Assembly: GCA_039811685.1 (NCBI GenBank)
Contig: JBDHZC010000006.1
Coordinates: 64,001 to 128,000 of the forward strand
Length of the DNA: 64,000 nucleotides
From: Armatimonadota bacterium
Lineage (GTDB): Bacteria; Armatimonadota; UBA5829; DSUL01
Direction of reading: 5' to 3'
This document shows positions 49,870-59,277 of the stretch, one piece after another (within the stretch, counting starts at the first letter, position 1; the number at the start of each line of letters is the position of its first letter). The notes beneath the pieces are model-generated. The model saw only the letters and a list, made by a program, of their open reading frames with translations. It searched no databases and was not told the origin of the DNA. The position numbers and the translations under genes are program-made.

Positions 49870-50133
49870 CTAGTCCGCCAGCTTCAGCCCTGCCTTTCGA
49901 AGCTGCCTGGCTATCGCGGCGTTGTTTTCAATGATAAGCTGAGCGGCCAGTTCGGCCGAGTAGTCAAACATCCTTGACAGACACTCATTGGCATAGGACG
50001 ACAGAGCTCCTCTCACGTCTCTCGACTGCTGTGTGATGCGGTCGAGATCGGACAGGACAGCTCTGCGGAAGTCTGCCGCCAACGCTAACTTCAGCTCATC
50101 AGCCCGCCGTGTGGCGTCAATGCCCACTTTCAT
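49870..50133 (-). CDS. Small helical hypothetical protein
   Basis: 87 aa; AGGGAG RBS and own promoter. Confidence 0.65.
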   Translation of the reverse strand: MKVGIDATRRADELKLALAADFRRAVLSDLDRITQQSRDVRGALSSYANECLSRMFDYSAELAAQLIIENNAAIARQLRKAGLKLAD

Positions 50134-50432: not shown

Positions 50433-51431
50433 CTACTTTGCGCCCGGGATGACCCAGGTGTGCATGCCTTGTGGCATATGGCATGATGCGCAACTCATCT
50501 CGGGTGTCAGCTTTGGATGCTTAGGACTGGCTACGTCGCTGGCGTGGCAACTGTTGCACAGCTCGGTCTGAGGCTTCTTCAGTTGAGCCGGCTTGTCCGA
50601 GCCTTTCCCGTGCATTTCGTGGCAGGTTATGCAGGTGACGCCCGCACCGGAGTGTTTGCTGTTCACCCACTCGTTGTACTGCTGCTTGTTACCAGGACCG
50701 TTGACCTTGTCCAGAACCAGGTAGCGGCCGAGATCGCTGCCCCACTTGTAACCCTTCGCGTAGCGCACCGTACCGTCAGTGCTTGCTCCGGTCGCGTGGC
50801 ACTGCCCGCAGATCATCGCCTGACGGGCGGGGGCGAGCGTCTTCGGATTTCCGATTTTCGTCCTGTCGGCCGTCTTGGCGTGTGCGCTGCCCGGACCATG
50901 ACATGCTTCGCACGTCACGCCGAGATCCGACCACGCGTGAGTCTGAGGATTGAAGCCTGTGGTATGTTTGGGAATAAGCTCTGTGGTAGCGTCAACGACA
51001 TCCTGCGGCTCCCACTTCGAGGCCGTCTTGTTCCACTTGCCTCTGAGAGTCTTCAGGTCTTTGTCCACGTATATCTGATAGGAGCCGTCGTTGACTATGT
51101 AAGCGACGTCAGCCTGACGGATGGGAGAGTCTTCGTCAAAGGTAGCGAGCATGGCTTTTGGCGTGTCGGCTTTCTGCATGGCATAAGGGTGTTTGGTCTT
51201 CACGAACGCCTCAACAACGGCCGGCGTCTGCACTTTGTGGCAGACCATACACACTTTGTCCATGCCAGCCGTATACGTGGCGTCGGCCGGCGGATCGGCA
51301 ATGGCCATATGCGCAACACCCAGCACAACTGCGCTCAACGTCACGCTACCCGCCACCGCCACTGCAAGCTTTGTCACTGGAGTCAGACCCACTCTGATAA
51401 CCTTTCCTCCGGTTAGAATGACAGGCAGCAA
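50433..51431 (-). CDS. Multiheme cytochrome c with six CxxCH (start may be GTG 51392)
   Basis: CMVCH, CEACH, CGQCH, CITCH, CNSCH, CASCH; signal or TM segment. Confidence 0.9.
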   Translation of the reverse strand: MLPVILTGGKVIRVGLTPVTKLAVAVAGSVTLSAVVLGVAHMAIADPPADATYTAGMDKVCMVCHKVQTPAVVEAFVKTKHPYAMQKADTPKAMLATFDEDSPIRQADVAYIVNDGSYQIYVDKDLKTLRGKWNKTASKWEPQDVVDATTELIPKHTTGFNPQTHAWSDLGVTCEACHGPGSAHAKTADRTKIGNPKTLAPARQAMICGQCHATGASTDGTVRYAKGYKWGSDLGRYLVLDKVNGPGNKQQYNEWVNSKHSGAGVTCITCHEMHGKGSDKPAQLKKPQTELCNSCHASDVASPKHPKLTPEMSCASCHMPQGMHTWVIPGAK

Positions 51432-51529: not shown

Positions 51530-52243
51530 TCAGTGCACTACGCGCAGCCAGTCCGCCAGAAGAAACCAGACACGGCCGATCAAGAGCGACATTCTGGCCA
51601 TAACGGTGGACCCGAACATTGCCCCGAACGCGAACATCAGCATCCAGCGACCAATGCGGGCTGAACCTCCAGCCGCCTTGTGTTTGTTGTAGTCGTAGCT
51701 AAAGAAAAAGTAGCTCAATACTGTGAGCAGCACAAAAACGAACACCGCGTTGTTGAGCGCCCCGGAAACTGAGAGTGACGCTTGCGGTGTGTGGGGCGCG
51801 ATTGAGGCGGCGGTCCCAGCAGCGACGGCGTAGCTGTGATGCGGCCACAAAGGCTTCAGGCTGGCGACAATCTTGGGGAAGTTGTTGCCAGCAAAATCCT
51901 GGAACATGAAGCCAACCGCCAGCCCCATGACAATGCCGAAAGCCAGGCGGCTGATCCAGTTGTGCTTCTGGGAATAGATGAAGTAGAACATCCCGCCCCC
52001 AACAAGCGCAAACGCCCACCACCACTGCCCCTGATCCCACATCGGGACCCACCACTTCGGGATGAGCACCTCCGAGACAATCAGAAACAGCCCATAGCCA
52101 ACCGCCAGCCCCAGATAGAAATGCTCGAAGACGCGATAGACCACGTTTTCGCGGTACAGGAATGTGTAGATCGCCAGCGTGCAAATGGCCCCTGCCCAGA
52201 TGATGGCCCTCTCGCCGGTAAGCAGATGCAGCAGATCGCTCAT
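51530..52243 (-). CDS. Conserved hypothetical polytopic membrane protein
   Basis: FLYRENVVYRVFEH, IGRWMLMFAFGAMFG.TVMARMSLLIGR; ATGA coupling. Confidence 0.8.
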   Translation of the reverse strand: MSDLLHLLTGERAIIWAGAICTLAIYTFLYRENVVYRVFEHFYLGLAVGYGLFLIVSEVLIPKWWVPMWDQGQWWWAFALVGGGMFYFIYSQKHNWISRLAFGIVMGLAVGFMFQDFAGNNFPKIVASLKPLWPHHSYAVAAGTAASIAPHTPQASLSVSGALNNAVFVFVLLTVLSYFFFSYDYNKHKAAGGSARIGRWMLMFAFGAMFGSTVMARMSLLIGRVWFLLADWLRVVH

Positions 52244-53073
52244 GAGGACGCGCCTTTTGCGGCACGGGAAAGAAAGTAGCCGGCGTTGGCCAAAACGACA
52301 AGCCCAATCATCAATAGCTCGGCAAATGACAGCGAGTTGCTCCAGCGAAGTCCATTGCCTGGAATTCCCAGCAACTTCTCATACTGAGCCGCTCCGACCA
52401 TGCCGGGCAGCATACCGACGATCTGATTGGCGTCCAGAGGATCGTATCCCTGTGCCACCATAACTGCCGTAGGCGCATAACCAAGTGGAACGCCGTAGGC
52501 CTCGTGCGCAAATGCAATCAGGTCGCTGATGCCTCCAACAGGCGTGATGTGCGCAATGAAGCCGACATCGCGAATCGTCTTGATGCCGCGCATAGCCTTG
52601 AGCTTCTCAATCGGCACGCCTTTGTAGTCCTGTTTTACAGTTGCGGGAAGGTTCTTGCCCAACCCCTTGAAAAACGACGGCAGAGGCACGACACGCCAAC
52701 CCCAGTTCACCCAGTCATCTCCGTACTTCTTCCCCTCCTTTTGCGCAATCTTCTCCGCCAGGTTCTCCATCAAAGTGGACGTCTGGGGCGCGAAAGGCAG
52801 GATCGCAAAGGGGATGTTGCGGCGAAAGAGGTGCGTCATCAGAGCTGCTGTCTGCGGCTGGCTTTCGGCAATAGTGCCTGCCCCCCAGTCTCCCGTAAGA
52901 ATGGCGATCTGACCGTGGGGGATGTGCTCAACTGTGTCATAAACGCCCTGGACTTCCGGGTTCACGACTGTGGGCATCTGAAACCGGACAAACATCGGGA
53001 TAGCGACGACGACAACCAGCAGCAGATACATAATCCGCCGGTCAATTGTCTGGATAGCAAGAAGGTATTTCAT
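52240..53073 (-). CDS. Conserved hypothetical membrane protein
   Basis: IDRRIMY + TM, soluble domain, KYGDDWVNWG, GMVGAAQYE, C-terminal TM. Confidence 0.8.
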   Translation of the reverse strand: MKYLLAIQTIDRRIMYLLLVVVVAIPMFVRFQMPTVVNPEVQGVYDTVEHIPHGQIAILTGDWGAGTIAESQPQTAALMTHLFRRNIPFAILPFAPQTSTLMENLAEKIAQKEGKKYGDDWVNWGWRVVPLPSFFKGLGKNLPATVKQDYKGVPIEKLKAMRGIKTIRDVGFIAHITPVGGISDLIAFAHEAYGVPLGYAPTAVMVAQGYDPLDANQIVGMLPGMVGAAQYEKLLGIPGNGLRWSNSLSFAELLMIGLVVLANAGYFLSRAAKGASS

Positions 53074-53076
53074 CTC

Positions 53077-53994
53077 TTAGACGTCGCGCTCAAAGTAGCT
53101 GCCACGCTCGAGGGAGAGCCAGATGCGAAGGCCAGTCGCCAGCATGCCCACCGCGAGTCCAAAATTGATACCCCTCTGCGCCGCTGCGTTCGGCTGTCTC
53201 AGAACCCATTGCCCAACGCGCTCGATTCTCAGATTTGACAACAGACCATGATCCGGCAGCCAGCTTGTCAGCCATGCGCCGACCGGAATCTGGCTCAGCA
53301 TCACCAGAAGCGCCGCAGCCATCATAATGCTGGCTTCGAAGCTGCGGATGCGAAAGGCGCGGTACGCTGCTGAGATAATAAAGAAGGCAATTAACGAGAA
53401 CATTGCGGCGTCGAGCTGGAAGAACAGCCCGCTCGTCGCGAACGCAAAGAGGTCCGGAATTCCAGAAAATTGCTTGAGATATCCGGCAAAGATCATGAAC
53501 GCCAGCCCGAGAAAGAAGAATGAACTGGCAAATGCGCCCTTGGTGACGTGGACGACGTTTCGGAAGTGAAGGTGGATCAGATTCCACAATCCCAGCGCGA
53601 AAGTAAACGCCCCGATAACCTGCCAGACCGTATTGACATTCTCCAGATACAAAGACAGCCAGTTCTCATCAGGCGCCAGACGCGAGTTGGACGCCAGAGG
53701 GCGCAAGAACCACCCGAACAGAGCGCTCATCGTCCGGTTCCACGGGGAGTGAGAGGCGAGCACCGTCTCTGCAGTTGCTTTCGGTGGCAGGAGAAACTCC
53801 AGGCTGAAGTACAGGCCGGCAATGAACGTGGCGGAGACGATCAGGGGCTTGCGGAAGCGCTTGGGTGTCTGCGTCAACAGAGCTATGAAGAGGCCGCCAG
53901 CGAACAGGCATCCGGCAATGTAGAGCGCGTTGAGTTTGTGATTGGGCTGCGCCTGGAAAAACGCCCCCAGCGGCAGTGCAAGACCTGTGCTCAT
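53077..53994 (-). CDS. Conserved hypothetical polytopic membrane protein
   Basis: MFSLIAFFIISAAYRAFRIRSFEA, PNAAAQRGI; ATGA coupling. Confidence 0.8.
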   Translation of the reverse strand: MSTGLALPLGAFFQAQPNHKLNALYIAGCLFAGGLFIALLTQTPKRFRKPLIVSATFIAGLYFSLEFLLPPKATAETVLASHSPWNRTMSALFGWFLRPLASNSRLAPDENWLSLYLENVNTVWQVIGAFTFALGLWNLIHLHFRNVVHVTKGAFASSFFFLGLAFMIFAGYLKQFSGIPDLFAFATSGLFFQLDAAMFSLIAFFIISAAYRAFRIRSFEASIMMAAALLVMLSQIPVGAWLTSWLPDHGLLSNLRIERVGQWVLRQPNAAAQRGINFGLAVGMLATGLRIWLSLERGSYFERDV

Positions 53995-54827
53995 CCGCCC
54001 ACCGGGAGTGAAAAGAATTCGACGACTTTCAGCAGAGCCGCTGGCCAGTGCCGATCAAGCCCGAGCTGCGCTCCCAAAGCTGTGCCACCCGAGATTCCCG
54101 CCACAGTGACCGAGATAACCCCCAGAACGACACATGCGATAAGCACCAGCTTGGCCCAGTCCTGCCCAACGAGGCTTCCGAGCAGGGTCGGCTCTTTGGA
54201 GAGGTAAGCGCTTCCCGCGTAGTACTCATCTCCAATAATTGTGTAATCACATGCGGCGATGAAGAACGGAAGCTGCGCAGTCTCCGGCGTCCCGGCTACC
54301 TGGATCGCGCCCACATGGTGCCCCGTCTCCGCCAGAATGAGCGACTCAGCAAAGAAGTTGCCAAAGTAAAAACAGCTCGCCACACGCTCCCTCGTCATGA
54401 CGCCCACGGAGGCTGACGCATACGCAAACTGCTGGTCGGAGAGAAACTGGATGTCCTGGGGTTCGTACAACTCAGGCGTTCCTTCGTGCGTGTAGGCTTC
54501 CCGCGCGACTTCCTGAGCGATCGTGAAAAGCACCGCATCTGCCAGCGCAACAATAACCCGCGTCCGGAACTTCGCAGCCAGCCGCAAAATGTGCGACAAA
54601 ATGGACATTGACTGCAGCCCGACGATATTGAGTCCCTGAATGCCTGGAGAGTAGAAGATCGCCCGCCCCATTTCAGTCGCGCGCCCGACAGCTTCGTCAA
54701 TGGCCTGCAGCCCCGGAATCTTTCTAATGAACAGCTCCGCGCCGCGACGCGCGGACACAATCTTGTAAAGAATCAAAAAGCACAGAATGAACTCGATCAG
54801 AGCAACAGAGAGATTGGCGTGCTTCAC
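53991..54827 (-). CDS. DUF6754-like membrane protein
   Basis: IRKIPGLQAIDEAVGRATEMGR, AESLILAE.G, QLPFFIAACDYTIIGDE.YA.SAYL (family recalled from memory). Confidence 0.75.
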   Translation of the reverse strand: MKHANLSVALIEFILCFLILYKIVSARRGAELFIRKIPGLQAIDEAVGRATEMGRAIFYSPGIQGLNIVGLQSMSILSHILRLAAKFRTRVIVALADAVLFTIAQEVAREAYTHEGTPELYEPQDIQFLSDQQFAYASASVGVMTRERVASCFYFGNFFAESLILAETGHHVGAIQVAGTPETAQLPFFIAACDYTIIGDEYYAGSAYLSKEPTLLGSLVGQDWAKLVLIACVVLGVISVTVAGISGGTALGAQLGLDRHWPAALLKVVEFFSLPVGG

Positions 54828-55123
54828 GTCGCTTCCTTTACCCGCGCCGCGTGCATCGCTTCGATATGACCGATCAGCCTTTCAGCGCCTCCGTCCTGGT
54901 ACATCAGTCTTGAAAACTCTCCCACACCGTCCAGCCCAAAGACCGGCGCCAGCACGGGTGAGGCCACAAGCAGCGCCTGTCCGGCCAATCGGGATAGGGG
55001 GCGGTGCATATCAAGGAACAGAATTGCCGGTGTGGCCAGGCCAAGCCGGACAACTCTGCGGGCAATCCTGCGGCACAGCTCCTCGGCCTGCTCCGGCGCC
55101 AGCGGCTCATTCAGATCAATCAA
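54824..55123 (-). CDS. Small hypothetical protein
   Basis: GLATPAILFLDMHRPL; coupled to both neighbours; start approximate. Confidence 0.7.
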   Translation of the reverse strand: MIDLNEPLAPEQAEELCRRIARRVVRLGLATPAILFLDMHRPLSRLAGQALLVASPVLAPVFGLDGVGEFSRLMYQDGGAERLIGHIEAMHAARVKEAT

Positions 55124-55586
55124 CGGCGGCCGCTTCCTGACTTCGGCAGCGCTGCACAACATCCAGCACTTCCTGCCGGTTCCCAGCAAACCGAAGAAAA
55201 ACTCCGCGGTAAACCTCCCTGCGAGAGCGAACGCTCAGAGGAGATAGCTTCACGCCATCGCCTGCCAGCCATATTCTGCGCACGTTCTCCCAGCCGATTT
55301 CGCTGCGAGAAAACAGACAGCGAGCGCCCGCGCTCTTCGCGCTGATGAAGTAGTGCACGGGAAATAGATAGTCAGCCACAGAAGCCACAATGGCAGCCCC
55401 CACCACAACCGCAGCGCCCCAGCCGAACATGGAGGCTCCTGCCCAGCCTGCGACCAGAACGCAGCCTATCACCACGGGTAGGCGGCGCGGGTCTTCTCTG
55501 AGCCGGTGCGTACTCCACTGCAGCACAGGCACGTGCGCGCATGGACTAAGGGTTTCTAATTCGAGAGTTGTGTGGCAATCTGACAT
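55116..55586 (-). CDS. Hypothetical two-TM protein
   Basis: Two TM segments then GVKLSP...YRGVFLRF. Confidence 0.7.
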   Translation of the reverse strand: MSDCHTTLELETLSPCAHVPVLQWSTHRLREDPRRLPVVIGCVLVAGWAGASMFGWGAAVVVGAAIVASVADYLFPVHYFISAKSAGARCLFSRSEIGWENVRRIWLAGDGVKLSPLSVRSRREVYRGVFLRFAGNRQEVLDVVQRCRSQEAAAVD

Positions 55587-57631: not shown

Positions 57632-58420
57632 TTAGACTTCTTTATTACCGGAAGGAGAAGGGCGCCGATCAAGCAGAATCCGCTCTGCAAGCGCGAAGTC
57701 GGTCAACTGATCCAAATCTTCACCGATCTCTGGCTCATCACAGACAAGCGCGCGCAGTCTGCCAGGCATCGCTCGCTCAGCCGCCGACTCCAGAGCGCGG
57801 ACACTGACTGCGCCGCTCCATATCTTCTGAGCTGCGATCACTTTCAGCAGCGTCCCGAAACCGACCATTCTCGCCAGCTTCAGCGGCTCTTTCCTGGCTT
57901 TGTAAAGGTCTTGAATGCGGGGCTCGGCGCGAAGGGCAAAATCCTTGTCTATAAGTACTGCATTTCCGCCAGTGAACGTTCCTTCCCTTACTCGAAGAAA
58001 GGTGCGCTTCAGCTCTGGATACCTGGCGTCACAGTCCTGCTTGCGAATGACAGGATAGACAAAGTCTGCGCTCAGTTCAAGCCCCCTGTCCACCAAGCGG
58101 CAAATTGCGGGGCCTTCGATCAGTGGAATGTCAGAGCTGGCCACCAGAATATCCGGCCCGCGCGCCTCGCGCACGCCTCGCATCATATTCTCCAGAAATG
58201 TCTCGCCAGGTTCAATCTGCACATCTCCGTCTCTGGCGTGAGGGCCGACTGTGATAACCCGGCTGATGCGCTGCGAGGACCGCAGAGCCTCCAGAACCCA
58301 GTCAATCATCCGTCGCCCGGCAACTGGCACATCTGATCGCCACTCCACATCGAATGCCTTGCGCACCTCCTCAGTAGCAGGCGCGCCAGCCAGCAGCACG
58401 CATTCAAGTTGAGACGGCAC
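57632..58420 (-). CDS. MobA-like NTP transferase domain protein
   Basis: VLLAG, GRRMIDWVLEAL, SSDIP, GTFTGGN, DLD; GTG overlaps ispE stop. Confidence 0.8.
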   Translation of the reverse strand: MPSQLECVLLAGAPATEEVRKAFDVEWRSDVPVAGRRMIDWVLEALRSSQRISRVITVGPHARDGDVQIEPGETFLENMMRGVREARGPDILVASSDIPLIEGPAICRLVDRGLELSADFVYPVIRKQDCDARYPELKRTFLRVREGTFTGGNAVLIDKDFALRAEPRIQDLYKARKEPLKLARMVGFGTLLKVIAAQKIWSGAVSVRALESAAERAMPGRLRALVCDEPEIGEDLDQLTDFALAERILLDRRPSPSGNKEV

Positions 58421-59277
58421 TAAAGGGCGCTCCGCTCTGGCAGGCCTGAAGCCACTGCGCGCCAAACATCCGAGAAGTCTTCCGTAGCGCGCTCTGCTGC
58501 TTCACGAGTCGGGAAAATCCCAAACACCGCAGACCCGCTCCCGCACAAAAGCGCCCCCCGTGCACCGGCCCGCTCCAGACGGGCTTTCAGGTCTGCAATC
58601 TCCGGAAAACGACTGAACACTGCCATCTCGAAGTCGTTGCCCAGGAGACCGGGCACAGCATCGCTATCCCCGCTTTCAAGCGCCTGAGCCATCCGCGCAG
58701 CAAAGTGACCTTTCCTCACGCCGCCCGCTTTGTCCAGCTCGCGATAGGCCCAGCCGGTGGGCACTCCGACATCAGGCTTCACAATGAGAAAGTGCAGCTT
58801 CATCCGCGTGCGGACAGGTGCAAGCTCTTCCCCGCGCCCCCTGCCCCTCGCGCAGCCTCCCTCCAGAAAAAACGCGACATCAGATCCCAGAGTTGCGGCA
58901 AGGTGTCTCAGGTTCTGGCTAGACTGGCTAAAGTGAGCCGCCGCACGCAGAGCCGAGGCAGCATCCGACGAGCCACTGCCCAGGCCAGCCTCCACGGGGA
59001 TGCGTTTCCAGAGCCTTTGACTCACGCCGGAACATCCGGGCAGTGCATGCGCAGCTTTTACGACGAGATTGTCCGCCCCGGACGGCGCAATTCCTTCTTC
59101 CAGTTTGAAGTCAAATGAACCTGGTGTTGAAGCGACTTCCAGCGTATCCGCCAGGTCTATTTCGTAGAAAACAGTATCAATATCGTGGAAGCCGTCCGGA
59201 CGGGTACCGTAAACATCCAGCGCCAGGTTGACCTTGGCATAGCAGGACAGCGTGAGGGGCGTGGCGTTGACATTCAT
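58420..59277 (-). CDS. ispE: 4-diphosphocytidyl-2-C-methyl-D-erythritol kinase
   Basis: AKVNLAL, DGFH, IPVEAGLGSGSSDAA, LGSDV, NDFE, GSGSAVF. Confidence 0.96.
   Translation of the reverse strand: MNVNATPLTLSCYAKVNLALDVYGTRPDGFHDIDTVFYEIDLADTLEVASTPGSFDFKLEEGIAPSGADNLVVKAAHALPGCSGVSQRLWKRIPVEAGLGSGSSDAASALRAAAHFSQSSQNLRHLAATLGSDVAFFLEGGCARGRGRGEELAPVRTRMKLHFLIVKPDVGVPTGWAYRELDKAGGVRKGHFAARMAQALESGDSDAVPGLLGNDFEMAVFSRFPEIADLKARLERAGARGALLCGSGSAVFGIFPTREAAERATEDFSDVWRAVASGLPERSAL

Follow-up and report, generated by a model that had tools for sequence, protein, structure and literature searches.

A six-gene cassette with five membrane proteins

The window examined here is a 64,000-nucleotide (nt) stretch of an Armatimonadota genome (GenBank assembly GCA_039811685.1, contig JBDHZC010000006.1, positions 64,001 to 128,000 of the forward strand). 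Its minus strand carries, at 51530..55586, six co-oriented genes in the order g1, g2, A, B, C and D, where A encodes a DUF6754 protein. An earlier note made from the letters alone had described the six as tightly coupled, and their coordinates bore this out, with overlaps of 4-8 nt at four junctions and a 3-nt gap at the fifth. Together with two genes on another contig, the ATPase gene E and its partner F, they very probably form one eight-gene system.

The g1 gene (55116..55586) encodes a protein of 156 amino acids (aa) with a two-helix membrane hairpin and a predicted, weakly bPH-like cytoplasmic domain, and appears to be an accessory member. The product of g2 (54824..55123, about 99 aa) is small and has no clear transmembrane (TM) helix; it is a core member and likely an adaptor between the ATPase and the membrane unit. 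Protein A (53991..54827, 278 aa) consists of a TM helix, a Rossmann-like domain predicted to be cytoplasmic, and a second TM helix. Protein C (52240..53073, 277 aa) has the same layout, with its Rossmann-like domain predicted to face outward, and is likely a membrane-anchored receptor. This common layout had been read from the letters and was seen in both AlphaFold2 models. Protein B (53077..53994, 305 aa) is polytopic, with six core helices, one additional N-terminal helix and the motifs SAAYRAFR and LERG. Protein D (51530..52243, 237 aa) is a six-helix membrane protein with the invariant residues E40 and R217 and a glycine-rich last helix.

The g2/A junction (GTGA) and the A/B and C/D junctions (both ATGA) are 4-nt overlaps, and the 3-nt gap separates B from C. 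The g1/g2 junction is set by the start of g2. The longest open reading frame (ORF) of g2 starts at 55189; the likely start is a TTG at 55123, 9 nt behind AGGAAG. With this start, g2 overlaps the end of g1 by 8 nt. A promoter scan found no site immediately upstream of g1 and one site upstream of ispE. In three metatranscriptomes, RNA contigs matched g2, A/B, B, C and D over short lengths only, and showed no co-transcription.

Hydrophobicity averaged over the alignments gave two membrane segments each in g1, A and C, six to seven in B and six in D. Only one weak hydrophobic segment (1.48) was found in g2, so five of the six products are membrane proteins, as had been proposed. The charged motifs singled out in the earlier note were also seen, and are conserved, in the homologue alignments. 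They are GRATEMG and CDY (A), SAAYRAFR (B), GAAEYE (C) and ENxxYRxxEH (D). Reading the six translations by eye, we saw no Walker A motif, CxxCH or Cys cluster, and thus agreed with the note that the six genes contain no ATPase, heme or Fe-S motif. No column of B, C or D had a Cys conserved at 40% or more, and A has a single invariant Cys.

The Pfam check suggested for the DUF6754 core gave a clear answer. Protein A matched PF20539 with an E-value of 2e-97 (325.8 bits against a cut-off of 27; profile positions 9-249 of 257), as a full-length member of a family without an assigned function. Neither Pfam nor NCBIfam gave a match above the cut-off for g1, g2, B, C or D.

Conserved gene order and co-occurrence with an ATPase

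We compared 80 loci, the best of more than 633 DUF6754 matches. The A-B-C-D order was complete in 73 of them and was cut by a contig end in five more, in line with the statement in the note that these four genes occur together. The g2 gene was found in 53 of the loci, where it precedes either A (44 loci) or E (9 loci), and g1 in 42, always directly upstream of g2. Five loci (L085, L091, L093, L098 and L107) had the order g1-g2-E-F-A-B-C-D, with one or two small genes inserted in two of them, and g2 lay directly before E in four further loci. The same linked order occurred in genomes of the window's own phylum, such as G080, G113 and G149. The cassette in the window equals this eight-gene operon minus E-F. 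Two fusions, one with B behind A (protein P0008) and one of g1 with g2 (protein P0297), are single instances and may be sequencing artefacts. At locus L100 (10001-20727), g2 and E lie between two A-B-C-D units that point towards each other; E is in two pieces on opposite strands there, possibly through inversion or misassembly.

Two genome samples, in which many genomes are drafts, revealed a close association of these genes. In the 151 own-phylum genomes, DUF6754 was found in 132 and PF13941, the family of E, in 134; both were present in 132 and neither in 17, with PF13941 only in two and DUF6754 only in none. Precisely the same 132 genomes held g2. When 25 candidates were scored per genome, g1 was found in 125 of these 132, and the 19 others gave no strong match and one weak match. 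For F, 24 system-positive genomes in which it lies away from E were chosen; all 24 contain it, as do the two E-only genomes, and the 17 negative ones all lack it. The second sample comprised 131 Planctomycetota-centred genomes, for which kinship was not given. DUF6754 occurred in 34 of them, and every genome with another of these genes was among those 34: 32 had E, 33 had g2 and 16 had g1. The combination of A, E and g2 was complete in 32 of the 131 and partial in two, and the remaining 97 held none of the three and no g1. Absence was also joint in the own phylum: A, g1, g2, E and F were missing together from all 13 genomes of one family (f7) and from G006, G010, G118 and G139.

The g2 family comprises 3377 clusters at 50% identity and has no Pfam match. 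The possibility that g1 and g2 lie outside the system was ruled out by the locus order and by the co-occurrence in both samples. By these sequence comparisons, the two genes belong to the same system as A-B-C-D, making eight genes.

Several membrane units may share one energizing set. Each of 21 own-phylum genomes had two to three DUF6754 matches and one strong g2 match, which suggested that g2 acts like a part of a module shared with E and F. Tandem A-B-C-D units behind one E-F were found at L091, L093, L107 and L111, and tandem paralogous units carry different outer domains. In the second phylum, four genomes (G177, G201, G220 and G237) hold two g2 genes, at least two E genes, and short and longer-scoring DUF6754 types, which suggests two system subtypes, each with its own motor. 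G151, G177, G201 and G237 contain an additional, more distant long E paralogue (660-700 bits).

The system was found in at least 10 other named bacterial groups, and its core is about 45-60% identical across phyla. The genes had been ascribed to diverse anaerobes. The diversity among bacteria held, but "anaerobic" proved too narrow, given loci from Armatimonas, Chthonomonas, Fimbriimonas and Capsulimonadaceae, which are aerobes. The conserved order, the A-B fusion and the lack of a known transporter family also support the earlier view of an uncharacterized multi-gene membrane unit; its physical assembly is something we infer. A complex prediction for A, B, C and D with D as the partner scored 0.62, against 0.51 for a control with C replaced, and these values were not counted for or against binding.

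The actin-fold ATPase E and its partner F

E (contig C3, 145564-147345, 593 aa) is the sole GlmL/MutL-type gene of the genome, and F (147358-148485, 375 aa) follows it. E matched the whole PF13941 (MutL) profile (positions 1-450 of 450; E-value 9e-128, 427 bits) and keeps the actin-fold nucleotide motifs DCGSTTTK, DIGGATTD and GSGG. Residues D11, G13, S14, T15-17, K18, D286, G288 and G289 were invariant in 11 sequences. E also weakly matched hydantoinase/oxoprolinase, and a PDB sequence search found no relative for it. F, which has no Pfam family, showed weak barrel-sandwich (RnfC_N/NqrA_N), RraA-like and KOW matches, and contains no conserved His or Cys. A role of F as a biotin/lipoyl carrier, as in Na+-pumping decarboxylases, was ruled out because the hairpin Lys of its barrel-sandwich domain is not invariant: 5 of 11 aligned sequences have S, N, R or T at this position.

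One paper describes MutL/GlmL as a chaperone for glutamate mutase reactivation (PMC4682846), and another gives a three-gene "glutamate mutase" annotation in Dictyoglomus (PMC5167688). E differs from this picture in several respects. Its 593 aa exceed the 464 aa of the classical short MutL in G094 by about 130, F and g2 are its partners, and its occurrence follows that of the membrane unit. The genome, 97% complete, gave no match to the mutase families PF06368, PF09043 or PF01642, with the aminomutase search run without a positive control. B12 use did not track the system either, since all 17 system-negative genomes hold cobalamin-binding cap domains. The missing mutase match, the longer protein and the untracked B12 use imply that E is not a classical reactivase in this context. 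The energy source of the system is probably this long GlmL/MutL-type actin-fold ATPase together with F, both encoded away from the cassette.

Reading by eye, we noted two trkA-like genes, one universal-stress-like gene and one APC-type transporter gene 3-8 kb upstream of E (contig C3, 137733-142250). None of them is kept near E elsewhere.

Topology and folds of the membrane subunits

The AlphaFold2 models of A and C, with predicted local distance difference test (pLDDT) values of 91.8 and 95.5, both consist of a membrane helix, a six-stranded α/β domain and a second membrane helix, with the helices and strands in the same order. The charge bias of their flanks differed. In A, the K+R value was 0.2 before TM1 and 4.6 after it, and in C it was 3.4 before TM1 and 3.7 after TM2. 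This bias predicts that the A domain faces the cytoplasm and the C domain the outside. The charge bias of B alternates, with the core predicted as N-in/C-in, and D is predicted to have both termini outside. In g1, the charge is positive before and after the hairpin; 4 of 41 g1 homologues matched bPH_6 weakly (best E-value 0.0018).

Features of homologous proteins agreed with this topology. All nine large insertions in B and D mapped by eye to predicted outer loops. Among the long A homologues, 111 of 120 carry N-terminal extensions, and 10 of the 11 inspected by eye start with a signal-peptide-like stretch. The outer additions on these proteins include FN3, β-propeller and FG-GAP domains; A in the window is a short form without the usual outer N-terminal domains. 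One protein of 709 aa (P0101) has DUF6754 fused behind a PMT-like (GT-C) glycosyltransferase domain.

Taken together, the predictions outline a membrane core of twelve helices flanked by outer and inner Rossmann-like domains. In alignments of 63 homologues each for B and D, the invariant charged residues in the membrane helices are R212 and R215 in B, and E40 and R217 in D. C has invariant E70, T202, Q217, G220, G227 and N263, and the invariant Cys of A is C193. The mean column identity was 51% for the inner-facing A and 30% for the outer-facing C, a difference that would fit docking of a common partner by A and recognition of varied cargo by C.

The profiles of A and C aligned in register but weakly, with a probability of 9.5%, and 1 of 30 shuffles reached the score; pairwise BLAST gave no match between them. 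We also considered A-B and C-D as one inverted duplicate. For B/D this was not supported: the profile comparison gave a probability of 0.4%, and 19 of 30 shuffles reached the score.

The Foldseek check proposed in the note was run for A and C and gave no meaningful match, and a PDB sequence search found no relative for either. Both models match generic Rossmann folds, none clearly ahead. MT0777 (1kjn) was near the top for A (Z 10.4, root-mean-square deviation 3.5, 134 aligned residues) and for C (Z 10.3, root-mean-square deviation 3.3, 139 aligned residues), but at 8-10% identity, and for A it was tied with sirtuin/DHS-like, RCK/KTN, GT-B and SDR folds. These ties and the low identity allow no function to be derived from the fold match. 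For RCK/TrkA-N chains, the Z scores were 9.3-9.7 against A and 8.0-8.5 against C, level with those of unrelated Rossmann folds, and no TrkA_N match was found in Pfam.

B had no family in Pfam, the PDB or the named Atlas clusters, and matched unnamed Atlas clusters only. For D, there was no family in Pfam or the PDB and no named Atlas match; the best PDB hit was an Rh ammonium transporter at an E-value of 0.03. At an E-value of 0.01, no family was common to more than 3 of the 63 homologues of B or more than 1 of the 63 of D.

Comparison with known systems

Several known systems share some features with this one. In group II energy-coupling factor (ECF) transporters, an EcfAA'T module is shared by many S-components, and the likeness is that a genome has one energizing set for its one to several membrane units. 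The ATPase here, however, has an actin fold and is not of the ATP-binding cassette (ABC) type, and the repeated unit comprises four subunits with soluble domains on both sides of the membrane. None of the eight genes encodes an ABC ATPase with Walker A/B and LSGGQ motifs. CbiQ/EcfT gave no match to B or D at E-values up to 1, nor among their homologues, and there was no match to an S-component.

RnfAE/NqrDE and the IIC/IID proteins of the mannose phosphotransferase system (PTS) are paralogous subunit pairs of opposite orientation. Two six-helix subunits and the A/C pair, with predicted opposite orientations, resemble such arrangements, as does the weak RnfC_N/NqrA_N similarity of F. In contrast to those systems, no conserved Cys, flavin, Fe-S or phospho-His feature is seen here, homology between B and D was not detected, and no family match was obtained. 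PTS families in particular gave no match; neither F nor A has a conserved His, although A keeps its invariant C193. By the features tested, the sequences argue against an ABC, ECF, Rnf/Nqr or carboxylase system.

No literature on the system, and none that names DUF6754, PF20539, PF13941 or MTH777/DUF1890, was found in a search that did not cover most subscription journals and supplements. The system is real, widespread and unstudied, and fits no known class.

A possible ATP-driven importer and the alternatives

We read the eight-gene system as an ATP-driven importer of an organic nutrient, a tentative assignment to which we give somewhat less than an even chance. Uptake is favored by the conserved inner and variable outer face, the varied outer domains and the many units per motor. 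A little more tentatively still, it may be a primary active transporter of a new class, and the first in prokaryotes to run on an actin-fold (ASKHA) ATPase in place of an ABC, P-type or AAA motor. In this class, the outside Rossmann receptor (C) would be mirrored by an inside ATPase dock (A), and one E-F-g2 motor would serve interchangeable A-B-C-D units. Its members would occur almost throughout one entire phylum and be common in many uncultured ones.

As an importer, the system might work as follows. The cargo would be captured outside by C, aided in other lineages by the variable outer domains on A, B and D, and would cross the membrane along a pathway formed by B and D. E would be positioned by g2 and F on the highly conserved inner domain of A. 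ATP binding and hydrolysis by E would then pry the membrane unit open and release the cargo inside, on the model of the B12-enzyme remodelling ascribed to its relative GlmL/MutL. Several A-B-C-D units would draw on a single E-F-g2 set.

For the cargo, the best guess, though a weak one, is peptides or amino-acid derivatives. The hints are mixed: Xaa-Pro peptidases lie directly downstream in three loci, an oligopeptide-binding protein is nearby in six, and amino-sugar genes occur near the system in a few. By raw count, glycine cleavage and/or lipoate-protein ligase genes are found within 10 kb in 10 of the 80 loci, in more than one phylum (L046, L050, L055, L068, L075, L081, L085, L091, L098 and L104). 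The gcvP gene is directly upstream of g1 in L085, L091 and L098, and the ligase gene directly downstream of D in L091 and L104. A gene for a large secreted protein lies near the system in six loci, at L104 (4402-7260) and, as relatives, in L085, L091, L098, L103 and L108; the N-terminal domain of this protein is carboxypeptidase-regulatory-like, of a kind often seen in TonB-dependent receptors.

Several points weigh against the importer. Transport, its direction, the cargo and ATP hydrolysis are proposals drawn from sequence comparison. Near-universal, mostly single-copy and scattered genes would fit a housekeeping role in the envelope as well as uptake, and A in the window is without outer binding domains. 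The neighboring genes are very mixed across loci, and nothing but F is conserved around E in 40 own-phylum loci, with F nearby in 16. A is not directly followed by B-C-D in 2 of the 80 loci (L049 and L087), a set skewed to one phylum because the closest matches were chosen. As 13 of the 17 negative genomes belong to family f7, the own phylum offers only about five independent losses. Homology between A and C is borderline by sequence, and that between B and D was undetected, with the shuffles reaching the score in 19 of 30 cases.

The same machine might also work outward, with E as the motor, to export, flip or assemble an envelope component such as a lipid-linked glycan or a surface protein. 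We regard this as unlikely, although its retention in 132 of 151 phylum genomes, mostly in one copy and despite the scattering of E, F and g1, is a housekeeping pattern. The fusion of DUF6754 to a PMT-like glycosyltransferase in P0101 and a glmU gene upstream in one clade point in the same direction. Whole lineages nevertheless manage without the system (it is present in 0 of 13 f7 genomes, and 97 of the 131 genomes of the second phylum lack it). Paralogous A-B-C-D units in tandem, with differing outer domains, would suit varied ligands better than a single envelope product, and no envelope pathway gene recurs across lineages.

A transmembrane receptor that carries out no transport seems rather less probable. 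Here C would sense an outside ligand, A would relay the signal, and E-F-g2 would be a nucleotide switch or kinase. The modelled like-fold domains, with that of A inside and that of C outside, would suit such a role, as would the RCK/KTN regulatory domains among the tied fold matches, the many units per single E and the weakly PH-like g1. Against this, no DNA-binding, cyclase or two-component gene is found among the eight or recurs nearby, and the twelve helices of B and D, with their invariant charged and glycine residues, suggest a pathway.

The earlier note had favored a secondary transporter or ion-translocating complex without an ATPase. The six genes indeed lack one, and charged residues are invariant in the membrane helices of B (R212, R215) and D (E40, R217). 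E might then be only an assembly or repair chaperone for an ion-gradient-driven device, as GlmL/MutL is described in PMC4682846, and the barrel-sandwich domains of F weakly resemble RnfC/NqrA. We consider this improbable, because the actin-fold ATPase and its partner co-occur almost perfectly with the membrane unit in two phyla: E is present in every one of the 132 DUF6754-positive own-phylum genomes and in 32 of the 34 in the second phylum. Moreover, B and D have no conserved Cys, no flavin or Fe-S motif was seen, and no transporter or respiratory family was matched.

Vectorial phosphorylation, in which A-B-C-D is a facilitator and E a kinase that traps a solute such as an amino sugar, appears more improbable again. 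Many ASKHA proteins are sugar kinases, and E has the ASKHA motifs and a weak hydantoinase/oxoprolinase match. NAGPA-like and GH3 genes follow E-F in the window's family, and nanE-, nagB- and glmU-like neighbors occur in a few loci. These neighbors are clade-limited (3-4 of 40 E loci), no His or Cys that could serve phosphotransfer is conserved in F, and the closest described relative of E is a chaperone, not a kinase. Finally, that E is an ordinary B12 mutase reactivase unrelated to the cassette, or that the system handles cobalamin, is hardly credible despite the PF13941 MutL match (E-value 9e-128), as the genome gave no match to glutamate mutase E, lysine/ornithine aminomutase or methylmalonyl-CoA mutase and E exceeds the classical short MutL in length (593 against 464 aa).

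Flanking genes

The cassette does lie between ispE/dxs and a multiheme cytochrome gene, as the earlier note stated, but these flanks do not accompany it elsewhere. Of the 80 loci, only that of the closest relative (L033) has dxs, ispE and the nucleotidyltransferase and cytochrome genes all together with the cassette, and a link between it and these four neighbors was therefore rejected. The nucleotidyltransferase gene (57632-58465, minus strand) is MobA-like (PF12804) and sits between ispE and dxs, a position kept in L033 only. The cytochrome gene (50433-51431, minus strand) encodes a secreted multiheme cytochrome c with six CxxCH motifs, whose best matches, of the DmsE/GSU2203 types, are below the cut-off; it lies outside the system. 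In each of the three metatranscriptomes, RNA contig depth across the 10-kb stretch peaked at an 87-aa ORF without a Pfam match (49870-50133, minus strand), which could be a highly expressed small gene or RNA.

Implications

None of the membrane subunits has a studied relative. The parts list is definite, with eight genes comprising six essential-looking partners and the accessory g1, and cultured carriers exist in Armatimonas, Chthonomonas and Fimbriimonas. The function is thus open to direct test. If the system is an importer, many "glutamate mutase L" annotations would have to be reassigned, because the long form occurs here without a mutase. An importer would also represent a new way of coupling ATP to transport, and would explain a core function of many uncultured bacteria.

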